Origin: Candidatus Latescibacterota bacterium
GTDB lineage: Bacteria; Latescibacterota; UBA2968; UBA8231
DNA: 64,000 nucleotides
Direction: 5' to 3'
Assembly: GCA_965221775.1 (NCBI GenBank)
Contig: CBDCSU010000006.1
Location: 608,001 to 672,000, forward strand
Under the pieces are notes generated by a model. The model was not told where the DNA came from. It saw nothing but the letters and a program-made list of their open reading frames with translations, and did not search any database. A program made the translations under genes and the position numbers. How positions within the stretch are numbered: the first letter of the stretch is position 1; each line of letters opens with the position of its first letter. Positions 35,121 through 41,813 of the stretch are shown here, piece by piece.

Positions 35121-35654
35121 CTACCGCTCGTCTGCGTACTCCACCTCGACCTCGAAGGAGGCGGCGCGCAGCCGCCGGTTGAGCCGGCGGAACTCGACCC
35201 GCGCCTCGTCCAGGCGGACGCGGCAGTCCTCGTAGGGCAGCTCGTTCTCCTCGACGATGTCCCGCTCCTCCTTGTGGAAGATGCGCTCGTACGCCGAGTC
35301 CACGACCTGCGTGTGCAGCTCCCCCAGGCGCTCGTTGAGCGCTTTGCGCGTCTCCAGCGCCTCGGTGAGGCTCAGGTCATCGCCCTCGTGCTCAAGACGG
35401 TGCTCGAAATTGGCCCGCTGGATCGCCGCGTTCAGCTTGCGCCGCTTGTACTCCAGGGCGCGCAGCTGCTCCCGGGCCTTGGAGACGCTGAAACCGGGAG
35501 CCGGCCGGCGCGAGGAGTCGCTGTCCCGGGAGAACAGGCCGCGGTTCTGGCGCGACTCGGGCAGGCAGTCCCGAAGGGTCTTGATGCGGGCATCGTACTC
35601 GCCGCGCAGTTCCAGGGCTTCGTAGAGCCGGACGGTCTTTCGGGCTTCGGTCAT
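35121..35654 (-). CDS. DIP1984-like coiled-coil protein
   Basis: RLYEALELR.E, L.AAIQRAN, SLTEAL..RK.L. Internal duplication of the (L/M)xLxEAL motif; GGAGG RBS. Confidence 0.65.
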   Translation of the reverse strand: MTEARKTVRLYEALELRGEYDARIKTLRDCLPESRQNRGLFSRDSDSSRRPAPGFSVSKAREQLRALEYKRRKLNAAIQRANFEHRLEHEGDDLSLTEALETRKALNERLGELHTQVVDSAYERIFHKEERDIVEENELPYEDCRVRLDEARVEFRRLNRRLRAASFEVEVEYADER

Positions 35655-35736
35655 CCCTCGCCTCCTTCCTCTGCGTCAGCGGGAGGAGTCGAAGGTCGAG
35701 GGGGGTCAGAACAGTGGCAAGGGGGGTGGGGAAGGG

Positions 35737-36113
35737 CTATCCAGGGTGAGGTATGCCACCCCCGGAGCATTCCCCCAACCACTCCTGGATCGTCGTCTTG
35801 ATCCACTCCCACTCGGCGTCTTCCAACATGCGAGACATCGGTTCCTCGTCGGCGTCGTCGAAGAAGCTGAGGTTCTGGCGATGGCGCACAGCTTCATGGC
35901 CGACAGGTCGGCCAAGGATGCTACCGGGCTGGGTCCCTCGGGCCAGTCTTCGAACGGACCAAGAAAGTCGAGATCGACGGAGAGCCGGTGGCCGAGGTGA
36001 AGGGCCACGGCAGTGCCGCCTGCCAGGTAGAACCCCTCCTCGGACAGTGGCGGCCCCAGTTGTCCGAGGACCTCCCTTTGTGCGGGAGACAGGCATTCAG
36101 GGTGCCAGTTCAA
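35737..36113 (-). pseudogene. AbiEii-like nucleotidyltransferase toxin, internally deleted and frameshifted
   Basis: FYLAGGTAVALHLGHRLSVDLDF jumps almost directly to DLSAMKL.AI. The C-terminal LSFFDDA..EPM is in another frame. Confidence 0.7.
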
Positions 36114-36481
36114 GCCCGCGTCCTCCGCCCCCAGACCCCCGCCCGCGCCGCCCGCACCCACTCCTCCACCTGGTCCGCCGGCAGATCGAGGATCAGCTCC
36201 CAGAACCGGATCCGCTTGGCGTCCAAGCCGCGGCACCGGCGCCGGATCAGCCACTGGCGCAACTGGTCCGGCTCGACCCGCTCGCGCAGCCAGGTCACCG
36301 AGTCCCAGTCGCCGGCGCCCAAGATGCGGGCGATGACGAAGTCGCGGTCGGCGGGCCAGGAGAGGTCCTCGAAGCGGTGGTCCCAGAACAGGTCCCGCAT
36401 CGACTCGGGCAGTCCCGCCTCCGGCTCCTGGTCCCGGCCGGCGGACGCAGGCGGTCCAGCGTGTGGGTCAGCCGTCCCCAC
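36110..36481 (-). CDS. DUF6922-like antitoxin partner
   Basis: LFWD....L.....RDFVIARIL..GDW....WL...FW pattern. Overlaps the toxin start. Confidence 0.7.
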   Translation of the reverse strand: MGTADPHAGPPASAGRDQEPEAGLPESMRDLFWDHRFEDLSWPADRDFVIARILGAGDWDSVTWLRERVEPDQLRQWLIRRRCRGLDAKRIRFWELILDLPADQVEEWVRAARAGVWGRRTRA

Positions 36482-36650
36482 TCCGCTCGGTGAGCGCGGC
36501 CGCCGCCGCCTTGCGGAGAAAGCCCACGGCCCCGGGGCTGGCGGCCAGGGCCCCGGCGACCTCGGCAGGCACTTTGCGGGAGAGCGCGAGGAGGGGCTCG
36601 GAGGGGACGGACAGGAACCGGCAGATGCGCTCGATGGTGACGGTCATTCT
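36468..36650 (-). pseudogene. C-terminal remnant of an HTH regulator
   Basis: TIERIC.FL...EPLLAL..KVP.....FLR with no N-terminal helices. Confidence 0.35.
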
Positions 36651-36765
36651 CTTAATGGCGAGGTGTGTTGAGTTGTAAGTCAACTCCACGCCTGGACTAG
36701 GCAGAATTGCCCAGGGAGGGACGCCCACCAAGACGCCCCCGCCAAGACGTCACCCCGGCCCGCCG

Positions 36766-38526
36766 TCACTCCCGCACCGCCAAGTGAAGCTCCCGGAGCT
36801 GCTCGGCGGACACCTCCCCCGGGGCGCCCATGAGCGGGTCCTGCGCATGCTGGTTCATGGGGAAGGCGATCACCTCCCGGATGTTCGGTTCGTCCGCCAG
36901 CAGCATGACGATGCGGTCGATGCCGGGGGCGATGCCGCCGTGGGGAGGGGCGCCGAAGCGCAGGGCGCGGATCATGCAGCCAAACCGGCGCTCCACCTCC
37001 TGCCGCGGGTACCCGGCGATCTCGAAGGCCTTGTACATGATGTCGGGCCGGTGGTTGCGGATGGCGCCGCTCGACAGCTCGACGCCGTTGCAGACGATGT
37101 CGTACTGGTACGCCTTGATCTCCAGCGGCGGCTGCGTCTCCAGGGCCTCCATCCCGCCCTGCGGCATGGAGAAGGGGTTGTGCGAGAAGGCGGCATGGTC
37201 CCGCTCCTGGTCCCACTCGTACATCGGGAAGTCGACGATCCAGCAGAACTCGTAGCATCCCTGCCGCCGCAGTTCGAGCCGGTCCGCCAGATGCAGGCGC
37301 AGCCGTCCCGCCAGGGTCGCCGCCTCGTCCGGAGGTCCGGCGATGAGGAGGATCGCCGACCCCGGCTCGGGCGAGCACTCCTCGGCGATGCGTGCGATCG
37401 TGCTCTCTTCCAGGGCCGCGGCGATCGATCCGGTGGCCCGGCCCCCGGGGATGAGCCAGGCCAGCCCCTGGCCGCCGGACTCTCTGACGAAGTCCTCGAG
37501 ACCGTCGAAGAACGAGCGCGGACGGACCTCGAGACCGGGCACGCACAGGGCGCGGACGACCCCACCTTCGGCGACGATCTCCCGAAACAGCCGGAACGAG
37601 GAATCCGCGAAAATGTGTGACAGGTCCCGGATCTCGAGCCCGAAGCGCAGGTCCGGCTTGTCCGTGCCGAAGCGCAGCATGGCCTCGGCGTGCGAGAAGC
37701 GCGGAAAGGGCTTCCCGGTCACCTGCCAGTCGCTGAACTCGTGGAACAGACCGGAGAACAGCTCCTCCACGACAGCGAAGATGTCCTCCTGCTCGACGAA
37801 GGCCATCTCCATGTCGCACTGGTAGTGTTCCCCGGGGGAGCGGTCGGCGCGGGCATCCTCGTCGCGGAAGCAGGGCGCGATCTGGAAGTAGCGGTCGAAG
37901 CCGGAAACCATCAGCAGCTGCTTGAACTGCTGCGGCGACTGCGGCAGCGCGTAGAAGCGGCCGGGGTAGAGCCGGCTCGGCACGAGGTAGTCGCGGGCGC
38001 CCTCGGGCGAGCTGCTGGTGAGCACGGGCGTCTGGAACTCGGTGAAGCCCATCTCCGACATGCGCCGCCGGATGCTGGTGATCACCTCCGAGCGCAACTG
38101 GATACGCCGGTGCAGCCCTTCCCGGCGCAGGTCCAGAAAGCGATAGGACAAGCGCATGCTCTCCCCCGTCTCGGCCTCTTCCGCCACCGAAAAGGGGAGC
38201 GGCTCCGCCGGCGACAGCACTTCCATCTCCCCCACGGCGACTTCCACCTCTCCCGTCTCCATCGCCCGGTTGATGGACTCTGGCGAACGCTCCCTCACCT
38301 CTCCCTCGACGCGGACCACCGACTCGCGGGGGACCCTGGCCGCGGTGGCCGCGGAGTCGTTCTCCGGCGAGACCACGAGCTGGGTGAGGCCGTAGTGGTC
38401 GCGCAGGTCGAGGAACAGCACGCCCCCGTGGTCCCTTCGGCGGTGTATCCAGCCGCTCAGGCGAACGCTCCGGCCGGCATGGCGCCGGCGGAGCTCGCCG
38501 CAGGTGTGAGTGCGATAGCGGTGCAT
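36766..38526 (-). CDS. aspS: Aspartate-tRNA ligase, probably non-discriminating (Asp/Asn)
   Basis: [16 protein letters not shown] (His typical of ND enzymes), [35 protein letters not shown]. Confidence 0.97.
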
Positions 38527-38560
38527 GGCAGTGCTTCTCCCAGGTTGTCGGACGGGCACG

Positions 38561-38594
38561 AAAAAACCCGCCGCGATGCGTGTTCGCGACGGGT
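38561..38594 (-). terminator. Intrinsic terminator in the aspS leader (attenuator 3:4)
   Basis: ACCCGUCGCGA-acacgca-UCGCGGCGGGU followed by a U-tract, ~35 nt before the aspS start. Confidence 0.85.
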
Positions 38595-38627
38595 CGGGAT
38601 CTCCAGGATCGGAGTTGGAGCGGGTCG

Positions 38628-38714
38628 TCAGAACACGCGCAATGGGGCGGGCGGATTGTTATCGCCCGGGTTGGCCGGATTGTTGTGCGTGCAGGCGTTC
38701 TGACGGGTCATCAT
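38628..38714 (-). CDS. Asn-rich leader peptide of aspS
   Basis: [28 protein letters not shown]: 6 Asn and 1 Asp in 28 codons. Alternative ATGs at 38720 and 38711. Confidence 0.75.
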
Positions 38715-38723
38715 GATCATTCG

Positions 38724-38752
38724 AGTGTAAGGAGGGAGCCGGACTTCGTCAA
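38724..38752 (-). promoter_or_regulatory. Sigma70 promoter for leader-aspS
   Basis: TTGACG-N17-TACACT. Confidence 0.8.
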
Positions 38753-39135
38753 TCAGGCTCCTTCAAGTGCCCCCGAACCTGTTCAAGCAAGGCCTCCACA
38801 AGGGCGAGCGCGGCCTTGCGATCGATCGGTTCGGCACCCGGGTCGAGACCCCCGTACCGGAACTCGACGGCATACGGCGTGTACAATGTCAACTCTCGGT
38901 GAGCCTCCACGTCGACATCGCGCCCGGCGAGCAGATTCACCAGGGTCTCGAGATTGTGGGTCAACGGATAGGTTTCGCCCAGCAGTGCGAGCCAGGCCTT
39001 GAAGGACTTCTCAGCCGCTTGCTGAAGGTGGAATCCATACGACTCATCCGGTGCTCCCGCCGTCATGTTCCGGAGCGTGAGGACATCGCGTTCAGCCGCT
39101 CCGAGCAGCATCCGCGCGCACTTAGGGTCGCTCAT
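38749..39135 (-). CDS. HEPN domain protein
   Basis: FHLQQAAEKSFKA, YPLTHNL, YAVEFRY. Confidence 0.88.
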   Translation of the reverse strand: MSDPKCARMLLGAAERDVLTLRNMTAGAPDESYGFHLQQAAEKSFKAWLALLGETYPLTHNLETLVNLLAGRDVDVEAHRELTLYTPYAVEFRYGGLDPGAEPIDRKAALALVEALLEQVRGHLKEPD

Positions 39136-39457
39136 AGAGCACCTTCCCTTCCCGCAGCGCGCGCGCCAGAACGTGGTTGAGGGAGTCGCGCCAGTAGTCG
39201 ACCTCGTCCCGGGTATAGACCAGGATGTCGGCGGAGACCGGAAAGTCCGCCAGGACCTTGTAGAGTCTGACCATCTCCTTGTGCCGGCTTCGTTTCCCGT
39301 CGAAGGGCTCGGACTCGACGACCACCAGATCGACGTCCGATTCCTCCCGCTCCTCGCCACGTGCACGGGACCCGAAGAGGATGACCCTCTCGGGATCGAC
39401 TTCCTCGACAACGGCCGTGACCATCCGGCCAATGAGTGATTCCGTGACGCCGGTCAT
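39122..39457 (-). CDS. Minimal nucleotidyltransferase (MNT)
   Basis: ILFGSRARG....SDVDL, ending EGKVLY. Overlaps the HEPN gene. Confidence 0.88.
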   Translation of the reverse strand: MTGVTESLIGRMVTAVVEEVDPERVILFGSRARGEEREESDVDLVVVESEPFDGKRSRHKEMVRLYKVLADFPVSADILVYTRDEVDYWRDSLNHVLARALREGKVLYERP

Positions 39458-39593
39458 TGCTCTACCCATTCGATCGGCGCACACCGCCGATCCTCTCTCG
39501 CGGCTTAAGTTACCCCAATCAACGCAGCAATGCCCACCCTGGCCTCGCTCACCGATCCGGCCGTGGTCGGGCGCCGCCCCGGCTTCCCGCCCC

Positions 39594-40388
39594 TCACCCC
39601 CCGCCGTAGAATGCCTCGGCGTCGTGCACCGGCCGGTAGCCCATCTCGCGGCGGGCGAGGTCGATGTCGAAGATGTTGTGGGTGTTGTCCGAGACCACGA
39701 AGTAGTGGGCGCCGCTGCGCAGGGTCCCCTCCCGCCAGGCGGTGTAGCAGCAGTGGACGAAGCGCGCCGCGTCCTCCTGGTGACACCAGAGGGCGAAGTA
39801 GCCCTTCTCGGCGGTCATGGCGTTGGCGGTGTTGATGCCGCCCCAGCGGGCGGCGACGGCGCCGTGGCCGAGAGCGGCCAGCCGCTGGCACCACTGCTCC
39901 ACGTGGGCCTTCTCGCGGCCGTAGTCGTTGGTGGGGCAGGCGTCGATGAGGCTCGAGACGCGCTCCGGCGGAGGCTCCAGCTCGTCGAAGCGGCGCTCGG
40001 CCCAGACCGCCCAGGGGCCCTCGTCGACGCTGTAGGCGCCGTCGCAGGCGTGGACCGAGCTGGCGCCGATGACCATCGGCACCGGCTCCTGGGCCAGGAC
40101 CGACTCGAAGACGCGGTCGGTCATGGCGTTCATCTCGGTCAGCGAGCCCTGGCGCGCCAGGTAGACGACCAGGTCGCGGCCGGCCATCAGCTCGCGCACG
40201 CGGGCGGGCTCGGCGGCGATGTCGAGGTCGACGAACTCCTGCCTTGGCACCGGCCCGGCGGCCTTGTCCGGGGATCCCGGCAGGTCGACGGAGGTGAACC
40301 GGTAGGCGGGGTCGAGGCGCGGCAGGTAGAGGCGCAGGCCGGAGCCGATCTGGCCGCGGCCGCCGAGGAGGAGGACGTTGATGGTCAG
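39594..40388 (-). CDS. NAD-dependent epimerase/dehydratase
   Basis: The frame extends upstream of the listed ORF to TINVLLLGGRGQIG (Rossmann); ASS and YGREK (YxxxK). Start codon unclear (possibly CTG). Confidence 0.72.
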   Translation of the reverse strand: MTINVLLLGGRGQIGSGLRLYLPRLDPAYRFTSVDLPGSPDKAAGPVPRQEFVDLDIAAEPARVRELMAGRDLVVYLARQGSLTEMNAMTDRVFESVLAQEPVPMVIGASSVHACDGAYSVDEGPWAVWAERRFDELEPPPERVSSLIDACPTNDYGREKAHVEQWCQRLAALGHGAVAARWGGINTANAMTAEKGYFALWCHQEDAARFVHCCYTAWREGTLRSGAHYFVVSDNTHNIFDIDLARREMGYRPVHDAEAFYGGG

Positions 40389-40428
40389 GGCGGGCCCCCT
40401 GGTGCGCTCGAGGCGGGGGCCTCGTGTG

Positions 40429-40716
40429 CTACGGCACGGGCGCCGGGGGTGCGTCGTCGGCCGGTGGCCGCCAGGGACCGATCAGGGCGCCCTCGATGCG
40501 AGCCACCCGCCGGTCCACATCGCCCACACGGCCGTCGAGGTCGCCCAGGCGGGCGTCGAGGCTGTCGATGCGCTGGGTCAGGTCAGCCCGCAGATCGGCC
40601 AGGTCGCTCCGGTGGCGTTCGTCCATCCGGTCCAGGCGGGTGTCGATGCGCCGCCACACATAGAGCACGACGGCAACGACGACGGCCGACTGCAGCCAGC
40701 TTTCCAAGGCTCCCAT
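40429..40716 (-). CDS. Small TM + coiled-coil hypothetical protein
   Basis: Hydrophobic N-terminus, heptad-like RIDxxD repeats, VARIEG. Confidence 0.55.
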   Translation of the reverse strand: MGALESWLQSAVVVAVVLYVWRRIDTRLDRMDERHRSDLADLRADLTQRIDSLDARLGDLDGRVGDVDRRVARIEGALIGPWRPPADDAPPAPVP

Positions 40717-40781
40717 GTTGGCCGAACCTACCCGGGCCCGGAGCCGCGGTCAATGCAGGCCGCCCGACGGAAGGAGAGAGG

Positions 40782-41813
40782 ATGAGAATCACGGAAGTGA
40801 GGGCCGCGCAACCGCACGCCTCCAGCGCGCCGGCGGACTGGCGCGGCACCCTCGGACAGCTGTCGGTGGCGGTCGAGGCCGGCGGCCTGGTGGGCTACGG
40901 CATGGGCGCCGGGGGCGCCGCCGGAACCCACGTCATCGAGCGGGAGCTGCGGCCCCTGCTCGTCGGCGCCGACGCCTCCGACGTGGAGGGCCTGTGGGAG
41001 GCGATGTACCGGTCGACCCTGGCCTACGGCCGCAAGGGCCTGGCCCTCATGGCGATCAGCGGCGTCGACCTCGCCCTGTGGGACCTGCGCGGCAAGGCGG
41101 CGGGCCGGCCGGTGGCCGCCCTGCTGGGCGATTCCCCGGCCGCGGAGATGCCCGCCTACTGCACCACCGGCCTCGACGGGGCCGATGGCCTGCAGGGCAT
41201 CACCGAGGCGCTTGCAGCCGGCTTCGGCGCCGTGAAGCTCGGCGGGATCGCCGGCTCCGGCTCCCCGGACGGCGGGACCGCCGACCTCCTGCGCAGGGCC
41301 CGCGAGCGCGCCGGCGGCGGGACCCGGCTGATGGCCGACGCCGGCATGGGCTGGACCGACCCGGCGGCCGTGCTCGCCCTCTGCGAGGAGGTGGCGAATC
41401 TCGATCTCGTGTGGCTGGAGGAGCCTCTGCCCTCGGACGACCTCGACGGCTACGCCTGGCTGACGCAGCGCTCGCCGGTGCCGATCGCCGGCGGCGAGCA
41501 CGAGTTCACGGCCCGCGCCTTCGCCGAGCTCATGGACCGCGGCTGCCACCGGATCTACCAGCCCGACATATGCTGGTGCGGCGGGATGACCCAGCTCGTG
41601 GAGATCTACCGGCTGGCGCGGGACCACGGCGTGCGCGTCTGCCCCCACCGGGGCTCGGAGGTCTGGGGGCTGCACGCCATCGCCGCCCTCGACCCGGAGC
41701 CGCTGGCCGAGAGCGGGCGCCCGTGGATGGAGTGGGTCGGCGGGCGGGAGCTGAGCGGCGGCCGGGCGCGCTGGACGGGCGGTCCCGGCTTCGGGGTCGA
41801 GCTGCCGCTTTAG
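40782..41813 (+). CDS. Mandelate racemase/enolase-superfamily protein (rhamnonate dehydratase-like)
   Basis: AAGGAG RBS; YGRKG..AISGVDLALWDL.GK, MADA, WLEEP, GGEHE, QPD. Confidence 0.85.
   Translation: MRITEVRAAQPHASSAPADWRGTLGQLSVAVEAGGLVGYGMGAGGAAGTHVIERELRPLLVGADASDVEGLWEAMYRSTLAYGRKGLALMAISGVDLALWDLRGKAAGRPVAALLGDSPAAEMPAYCTTGLDGADGLQGITEALAAGFGAVKLGGIAGSGSPDGGTADLLRRARERAGGGTRLMADAGMGWTDPAAVLALCEEVANLDLVWLEEPLPSDDLDGYAWLTQRSPVPIAGGEHEFTARAFAELMDRGCHRIYQPDICWCGGMTQLVEIYRLARDHGVRVCPHRGSEVWGLHAIAALDPEPLAESGRPWMEWVGGRELSGGRARWTGGPGFGVELPL

Follow-up and report, generated by a model that had tools for sequence, protein, structure and literature searches.

A putative asparagine-codon leader-peptide attenuator upstream of a second aspartyl-tRNA synthetase gene in Latescibacterota

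The present analysis concerns the region directly upstream of aspS2, one of two genes for a bacterial-type aspartate--tRNA ligase (aspartyl-tRNA synthetase, AspRS) in the genome of a Candidatus Latescibacterota bacterium (assembly GCA_965221775.1). The gene lies in a stretch of 64,000 nucleotides (nt) of contig CBDCSU010000006.1 (positions 608,001 to 672,000), hereafter the window, in whose numbering all coordinates are given and in which all leader features are on the minus strand. In front of aspS2 we find a promoter, a small upstream open reading frame (uORF) with clustered asparagine (Asn) codons and RNA segments that can pair in mutually exclusive ways, one of them as a terminator. From our perspective, it is likely that this leader represents a ribosome-mediated transcription attenuator that senses how much Asn-tRNA(Asn) is available and controls the transcription of aspS2 accordingly. 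The individual elements are the following:

38747..38752, minus strand: -35 box TTGACG, overlapping the stop codon of the upstream HEPN gene
38724..38729, minus strand: -10 box TACACT, separated from the -35 box by a 17-nt spacer
38628..38720, minus strand: leader uORF of 30 codons, 6 of them Asn; UGA stop at 38630-38628
38690..38705, minus strand: segment 1, the 5' strand of the anti-antiterminator (CGUCAGAACGC-C-UGCA), within codons 6-11, as paired in the minimum-energy fold
38626..38641, minus strand: segment 2 (UGCG-C-GUGUUCUGACG), which includes the uORF stop and has segment 1 or segment 3 as alternative partners
38578..38591, minus strand: segment 3 (CGUCG-C-GAACACGC), terminator 5' arm plus loop and antiterminator partner of segment 2
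38561..38595, minus strand: intrinsic terminator, a 12-pair stem (38595-38565) followed by a run of six uridines (U-tract, 38566-38561)
38537..38541, minus strand: GGGAG Shine-Dalgarno sequence of aspS2, 10 nt 5' of its ATG, as read from the sequence
36766..38526, minus strand: aspS2, bacterial-type aspartate--tRNA ligase of 586 amino acids (aa), a full-length match to NF001750 at 795 bits (cut-off 443)

The promoter TTGACG-N17-TACACT, which had been proposed in the initial annotation, is present at the positions given there and is the only promoter-like site within 36000-41000, with 0.2 such sites expected from shuffled sequences. The uORF had been described with six Asn codons, two Asn-Asn pairs and a length of 28 codons. 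The codons and both pairs are found (38699-38697, 38684-38679, 38672-38670 and 38660-38655, in addition to one aspartate (Asp) codon), but the 28-codon start is the second of three in-frame ATGs, and the full reading frame comprises 30 codons. Since these ATGs (38720, 38714 and 38711) sit only 3, 9 and 12 nt 3' of the -10 box, there is no room for a Shine-Dalgarno sequence in the uORF message, and the uORF reads, as had been suggested, as leaderless or nearly so. The leader ends at 38527, as annotated, with the aspS2 ATG at 38526-38524 and a distance of 35 nt between terminator and ATG.

The alternative pairings were likewise located exactly where they had been placed. The core of segment 1, CGUCAGAAC (38705-38697), which encloses the first Asn codon, faces the core of segment 2, GUUCUGACG (38634-38626). 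In the antiterminator, GCGUGUUC (38638-38631) pairs with GAACACGC (38585-38578) and UGACG (38630-38626) with CGUCG (38591-38587), which amounts to 13 pairs in total, and the 3:4 hairpin with its U-tract completes the set. The minimum-energy fold of the leader consists of a 1:2 helix of 11+4 pairs plus the terminator, and the whole leader folds more stably than its shuffles (z = -2.59), with 1 of 200 shuffles being equally stable.

The Asn enrichment of this uORF is far beyond chance. The genome has a G+C content of 67%, and Asn accounts for 1.2% of the residues of AspRS2, 1.9% of those of its paralog AspRS1, 0.7% of those of the asnS product and 0.94% of all six-frame open reading frames (ORFs) of at least 400 aa. 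Of 22,600 ATG-started ORFs of 15-60 aa genome-wide, 3 encode at least six Asn, and in 6 of them four or more Asn account for 13% or more of the peptide. Of these six, a single one has a stable hairpin and a U-run within 130 nt downstream, namely the uORF of aspS2.

Upstream regions were compared at 33 aspS2 ortholog loci, of which 31 stem from genome assemblies, one from a contig labelled Candidatus Moanabacter (L053) and one from a metagenome contig (L130). An Asn-rich uORF, a hairpin and a U-run lie directly upstream of the gene in 31 of the 33 loci, the other two (L214 and L231) ending at contig ends, and both the ORF and its Asn codons are thus conserved in relatives. On the basis of this comparison, we regard the leader as a real and well-conserved cis-regulatory element. 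Three types of leader unit can be distinguished:

Type A, 26 units including that of the window: M(M)TRQNDRTQNNNNPLxPLRVF and longer variants, 19-28 codons from the last in-frame start; mean content of 22% for Asn and 4% for Asp
Type B, 15 units: MTFRHKHTARAFSHNNDDNNPAIRARWRWP; 15% Asn and 6% Asp; always in second position, downstream of a type-A unit with terminator
Type C, 4 units: ...DNNGDNNNQGNNN...; 16% Asn and 8% Asp

The three types are unrelated in sequence, and what they have in common are runs of two to four Asn codons and the architecture of a switch. The uORFs of the 31 loci, those of type A included, contain 3-8 Asn each, as compared to a genome background of 0.7-1.9% Asn. Type-B units are located inside the transcript and possess a GGAG motif 8 nt before the AUG as well as an antiterminator and a terminator of their own. 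At 14 loci, types A and B form tandems (L211, at 1165-1475, L022, L212, L213, L215, L216, L218-L223, L225 and L229), and at L227 the type-A unit is degenerate while the second unit, of type B, is intact.

In the type-C lineage represented by L233:2-1414 (also L130 and L232), the Asn-rich DNNRDNNNQGNNN is the in-frame C-terminal tail of an upstream class-II lysS-like gene (...GIDRLVMLLTDAASIRDVIPFP-MVKARQ...), which is followed by a terminator and then by aspS2. In L024, the type-C ORF and the upstream gene overlap in different frames. The sensor of type C may hence be a ribosome that finishes the upstream gene or one that starts at an internal ATG.

The type-A leaders show a coding signature. 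Insertions and deletions in their alignment measure 21, 24 or 27 nt and are thus all multiples of three, and Asn and Asp codons vary synonymously (AAC/AAU), as exemplified by GAUAACAAU, GACAAUAAU and GAUAAUAAU in the three closest genomes. The rare codon AAU accounts for 81 of the 131 Asn codons in type-A leaders versus 4 of 22 in three checked genes, a preference that fits a tuning for Asn decoding. A promoter of the form TTGAC[GA]-16/17-TAnnnT is present in 24 of the 26 leaders, the first in-frame ATG following 8-11 nt past the -10 box in most of them, and the UGA lies inside segment 2 with the Asn codons upstream in all 26.

Within the family, 22 of the 76 genomes carry the type-A core motif, each in a single copy (0 matches for a reversed-pattern control), and the motif adjoins aspS2 wherever both share a contig, the pair in G139 being split by an assembly break. 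No further copy of the leader was detected in the genome of the window by the small-ORF scan and the type-A motif search, including the regions before gatCAB, asnS and aspS1. At 71 loci of the closest AspRS from outside the clade (55-62% identical), no uORF with at least five Asn is present, and among the readable upstream regions of the best 80 loci of a metagenome scan, mostly outgroups of 55-63% identity, only L130 has the leader.

The helices are also kept in relatives, with a few compensatory changes. Across the 26-sequence type-A alignment, whose members are mostly close kin and not independent, pairing extends to 86.4% of cells in the 1:2 helix, to 99.6% in the terminator and to 97.9% in the antiterminator, the latter as compared to 9-59% for controls in which the partners were slid by 1-3 columns. 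The 1:2 helix and the terminator contain four pairs with double changes, which 3 of 500 shuffles reach. The compensatory columns of the antiterminator are 95/149 (UA 23, CG 1, UG 1) and 97/147 (UA 23, CG 2), and 0 of 500 shuffles match its double-change cells. Moreover, an RNAalifold consensus that was run blind returned the antiterminator helix. Because the sequences are close kin, these statistics support the structure without proving it. From our point of view, more weight attaches to the fact that the same logic is rebuilt from other sequence in types B and C; in type B, GGCUCGAUGGCG can pair with CGCCGUUGAGCC of the terminator or fold locally onto CGCCAU, which immediately follows the Asn codons. 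As such, the proposal of the initial annotation that an Asn-codon leader peptide and mutually exclusive helices attenuate aspS gains support both from the conservation at 31 of 33 loci and from the retained helices.

To represent a stalled ribosome, the RNA 3' of a ribosome at the last Asn codon was folded with the 3' arm of the terminator not yet made. For the window, this resulted in the antiterminator at -24.6 kcal/mol, versus -26.7 kcal/mol for the 60-nt terminator tail, and it sequestered 8 of the 12 nt that form the 5' arm of the terminator. The antiterminator was also obtained in most type-A and type-B units, where it takes 6-10 nt of the 5' arm; in about six units (L053, L209, L217, L224, L232 and L233) the terminator boundaries were missed by the crude detection that was used.

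Taken as an attenuator, the leader would operate as follows. Transcription would start a few bases before the AUG of the uORF, and a ribosome would translate its 28-30 codons. If Asn-tRNA(Asn) is ample, the ribosome would reach the UGA and, as this codon is located within segment 2, would mask that segment on terminating, so that the 3:4 terminator can form and the polymerase would stop at the U-tract. If Asn-tRNA(Asn) is scarce, the ribosome would stall on one of the six Asn codons and block segment 1. Since the last Asn pair, which ends at 38655, is five codons before segment 2, the stalled ribosome would leave segment 2 free, the 2:3 helix could form and aspS2 would be transcribed. Without any translation, the 1:2 and 3:4 helices would both form and transcription would terminate. 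We infer the translation of the uORF, the stalling and the response to Asn, as well as a non-discriminating activity of AspRS2, that is, the acceptance of tRNA-Asn besides tRNA-Asp.

Attenuation by leader peptides is textbook knowledge for Trp, His, Leu, Thr, Ile/Val and Phe, and pheM-pheST is a tRNA synthetase operon. The aspS2 leader resembles pheM-pheST and trpL in its short uORF with clustered regulatory codons, in its four segments with 1:2, 2:3 and 3:4 helices, in a stop codon that lets the terminating ribosome mask segment 2 and in the intrinsic terminator just before the regulated gene. As its target is likewise a tRNA synthetase, pheM-pheST is the closest in mechanism. Unlike in those systems, however, the codons of the aspS2 leader are Asn codons, and the enzyme under control is not the one that charges the sensed amino acid but would make the precursor Asp-tRNA(Asn). 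The aspS2 leader further differs by its (nearly) leaderless uORF without a Shine-Dalgarno sequence, by tandem units in relatives and by the lack of similarity to any Rfam leader. The general scheme of leader-peptide attenuation is described in PMC2659441, where a structured aspS 5' untranslated region with a terminator in Shewanella is labelled only as a "tRNA synthetase leader".

The question arises why Asn-tRNA(Asn) should control an aspartyl-tRNA synthetase. The genome (5.36 Mb in 6 contigs, 96.8% complete, 7.75% contamination) contains four class-IIb synthetase-like genes, namely aspS2, aspS1, asnS and epmA. The second bacterial-type aspS, aspS1, resides on contig 4 (813 bits against NF001750), and the two paralogs are 44% identical; since the one- or two-contig assemblies G007, G011 and G017 also hold both copies, they are not a binning artefact. 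The gene for asparaginyl-tRNA synthetase (AsnRS), asnS, is present with 555.6 bits (cut-off 414), and profile searches of the genome further recovered glnS for glutaminyl-tRNA synthetase (GlnRS; 669.5 bits), gatB (535.6 bits) and gatA (610.7 bits). In this 96.8%-complete genome, asnA had zero matches and the best match of asnB, with 64.7 bits, was under the cut-off of 267.1. The single tRNA-Asn(GUU) has the pair U1-A72 and tRNA-Asp the pair G1-C72. The initial annotation had expected a genome that lacks asnS and has gatCAB. The former turned out otherwise, as asnS and also glnS were found and the regulated gene is a second aspS paralog; for the latter, the two genes searched, gatA and gatB, were found. 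As a side observation, there is no class-II lysyl-tRNA synthetase (LysRS) among the four PF00152 matches of the genome, whose LysRS is presumably of class I.

PMC4206432 describes a class of organisms, including Deinococcus, Thermus and Bdellovibrio, in which AsnRS and GlnRS are present and GatCAB is used solely for making Asn on tRNA-Asn. According to the same source, U1-A72 is a required identity element of GatCAB, a second AspRS is rare and a discriminating AspRS discriminates at least 500-fold against tRNA-Asn. The inventory given above (GatA and GatB beside AsnRS and GlnRS, a U1-A72 tRNA-Asn, asnA and asnB not found) fits this class of tRNA-dependent asparagine biosynthesis, and together with the two AspRS it resembles Deinococcus radiodurans and Thermus thermophilus as described in PMC4206432. 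The AspRS2 of those two species is of the short archaeal type, whereas AspRS2 here is a bacterial-type enzyme of 586 aa. On this analysis, the pathway does not look like the sole way to charge tRNA-Asn but rather like a means of asparagine biosynthesis comparable to that of Deinococcus and Thermus, and aspS2 probably feeds tRNA-dependent asparagine synthesis.

Given the presence of AsnRS, GlnRS, GatA/GatB and the U1-A72 tRNA-Asn while AsnA and AsnB were not found, extra AspRS would most likely raise the level of Asp-tRNA(Asn), which GatCAB would convert to Asn-tRNA(Asn). Because AsnA and AsnB were not found and AsnRS and GlnRS are present, the path from AspRS via Asp-tRNA(Asn) to GatCAB is the only visible asparagine route, and aspS2 would most likely be, in effect, an inducible asparagine-biosynthesis gene. 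The pattern within the family, in which aspS2 mostly occurs without asnB and vice versa, agrees with the biosynthesis interpretation. A match to asnB is lacking in 25 of the 33 genomes with aspS2 and present in 29 of the 43 without it, although asnB-family matches may be other amidotransferases and the genomes are kin and hence not independent. In the genus of the window, G000, G002 and G007 have aspS2 without asnB, and G001, G005, G008 and G009 have asnB without an intact aspS2.

Several observations weigh against this interpretation of leader and gene. With regard to the RNA, covariation is thin, with only two to four pairs showing double changes. A thermodynamic fold in which only the ribosome footprint was masked returned the 1:2 helix and the terminator every time, which we judge to be a modelling artefact as the helix cannot close around the ribosome. 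In the folds, the antiterminator was obtained only with segment 1 taken to be unavailable and the 3' arm to be unmade, which is the standard kinetic assumption but an assumption nonetheless. With regard to the distribution, 8 of the 33 aspS2 genomes also have an asnB match and 14 genomes of the family have neither. Within the genus of the window, the single-contig genome G006 retains no more of aspS2 than a frameshifted stretch (L236:3421-4313) that comprises only residues 179-416 and 454-515 at 86-90% identity, with no leader motif found near it and no asnB match in the genome. As only this remnant is left and asnB was not found, aspS2 is dispensable in G006, and AspRS1 may itself serve tRNA-Asn.

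The enzyme itself does not settle the matter in favour of AspRS2 either. One criterion for a non-discriminating bacterial-type AspRS is the RRDHGG histidine, which belongs to the anticodon-binding domain. The initial annotation had pointed to this residue in the regulated enzyme, where it is indeed found, but it occurs in 11/11 aspS2 and 25/25 aspS1 products alike, besides 65/70 other sequences, and is thus no sign that would single out AspRS2 as non-discriminating. Among solved structures, 4wj3, a chain with the name Asp/Asn ligase, has H at this position, whereas L is found in 1c0a and in 6hhv, which bears the name Asp ligase; we take the latter two chains to be of discriminating enzymes. 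Likeness to solved structures fails to separate AspRS1 from AspRS2 and marks neither as discriminating or non-discriminating. Since both paralogs carry the histidine, AspRS1 may also accept tRNA-Asn, in which case aspS2 would act as a booster rather than as the sole non-discriminating enzyme.

It could also be imagined that the leader is a peptide-based attenuator with broader sensing, which would respond to Asp and Asn together, to general translation capacity or by arrest of the nascent peptide. Leaders of types B and C carry one to five Asp codons beside their Asn runs, e.g., SHNNDDNNP and DNNGDNNNQGNNN, so that sensing may not be purely of Asn, and Asp-tRNA(Asp) and Asn-tRNA(Asn) both depend on AspRS. 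The leader of the window, however, has six Asn codons versus one Asp codon, some type-A leaders are without Asp at an average of 4% as opposed to 22% Asn, and the preference for AAU concerns Asn codons. We therefore regard broader sensing as unlikely, though as the best placed of the alternatives.

Less likely still, and in our view improbable, is a translation-independent RNA switch, i.e., a leader that binds a tRNA, a metabolite or a protein and whose ORF is a by-product of structure. Segments 1 and 2 reach into the two ends of the uORF, and part of the conservation of the peptide (MTRQN..., ...PLRVF*) is hence explained by RNA pairing. Furthermore, in Clostridium acetobutylicum a non-discriminating AspRS/GatCAB operon is reportedly under the control of a tRNA(Asn)-responsive T-box (Saad et al., 2012, J Biol Chem). 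The logic of that system would be the same, as extra AspRS for tRNA-dependent Asn is induced by a shortage of charged tRNA-Asn via a terminator and an antiterminator, but the T-box RNA binds the tRNA directly, whereas in the aspS2 leader a ribosome on Asn codons would do the sensing. No Rfam 15 family, the T-box included, gave a match at the gathering score in four ortholog loci, and a search of 38000-39300 with E up to 10 yielded as its sole match CrfA on the terminator, at chance level with 17.9 bits (gathering score 38). It also speaks against a translation-independent switch that the three unrelated leader types have nothing in common but consecutive Asn codons within an open frame located between promoter and terminator, that insertions and deletions in the uORF are multiples of three, that the internal type-B units have a Shine-Dalgarno sequence and that the type-A stop is always within segment 2.

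That the hairpin, 155 nt 3' of the HEPN stop (38751-38749) and on the same strand, is merely the terminator of the upstream MNT-HEPN operon, whose read-through it may also stop, and that Asn-rich ORF and alternative pairings arose by chance, is extremely improbable and contradicted by the data, as MNT-HEPN precedes only 2 of the 33 loci, at which the upstream genes vary, yet uORF and terminator are present in 31, a conserved promoter separates the HEPN gene from the uORF, among 22,600 small ORFs only 1 is both rich in Asn and followed by a terminator and relatives have duplicated leader units in tandem; the hairpin hence belongs to aspS2.

Returning to the attenuator that senses Asn-tRNA(Asn), a full-text literature search, whose coverage largely leaves out subscription journals, found no description of an Asn-codon leader peptide or of aspS attenuation. 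The leader is very probably an Asn-sensing, ribosome-mediated attenuator of a second aspS, unusual in its leaderless uORF, its natural tandem units and, in one lineage, the fusion of the sensor to an upstream gene, while the mechanism itself would be of the classical trp/pheM type. More speculatively, and with reservations that outweigh our confidence, Asn-codon leaders could represent a general, so far undescribed control of tRNA-dependent asparagine biosynthesis, in which a non-discriminating AspRS paralog and GatCAB together act as an inducible asparagine synthetase and of which Latescibacterota hold a single leaderless form, a two-step tandem form and a form with a sensor in a lysS tail. 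If this holds true, tandem units should respond more sharply, and in the type-C form ribosomes finishing the lysS-like gene would decide on read-through into aspS2. Independently of this generalisation, since the sensed Asn-tRNA(Asn) lies two enzymatic steps past the regulated enzyme, the aspS2 leader would provide direct genetic evidence for the retention of a second AspRS in the service of asparagine biosynthesis. It would also help to explain why GatCAB and an extra aspS are kept in some bacteria beside a full set of synthetases, a question left open in PMC4206432. In practical terms, the leader of about 160 nt is self-contained and thus easy to test with reporters, the natural tandem variant provides a test case for whether stacked attenuators sharpen a response, and the leader motif can serve to mark an Asn-regulated aspS paralog in the annotation of Latescibacterota genomes.

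With regard to its distribution, aspS2 was found in 33 of 168 genomes of the phylum (E-value at most 1e-170), all within one family. In a tree of 106 AspRS sequences, including 11 from aspS2 and 25 from aspS1, the former constitute one clade (support 0.987) and the latter another (support 1.0). The aspS2 clade is placed with alphaproteobacterial and planctomycete AspRS, apart from aspS1, at a sister-group support of 0.458, and the nearest AspRS outside the clade, at 55-62% identity, belong to alphaproteobacteria, Geminicoccaceae, Pirellula and others. The contig labelled Candidatus Moanabacter (Verrucomicrobiota by name) holds at L053:2165-2323 a type-A-like leader with a GTG start, MINQVISTLNNNTANGDANRNAHLSVP, next to a 70% identical aspS2, and the helices of this leader stay paired through altered bases. 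Either aspS2 and its leader have moved between phyla or the contig is mis-binned.

Around the leader and aspS2, the window contains the following genes:

39122-39484, minus strand: MNT nucleotidyltransferase, upstream of aspS2, part of a toxin-antitoxin-like pair
38749-39432, minus strand: ORF of the HEPN protein, upstream of aspS2, with the domain in its C-terminal part
35706-36254, minus strand: AbiEii-like nucleotidyltransferase, downstream of aspS2, part of a toxin-antitoxin-like pair
35121-35654, minus strand: DUF6847 protein, downstream of aspS2

The flanking toxin-antitoxin-like pairs suggest a variable, island-like setting for leader and aspS2. Each of 20 public sequencing runs from 7 studies, none recorded as RNA, contained half or more of the words sampled from 38000-39200, and those with a readable label are sponge or marine metagenomes.

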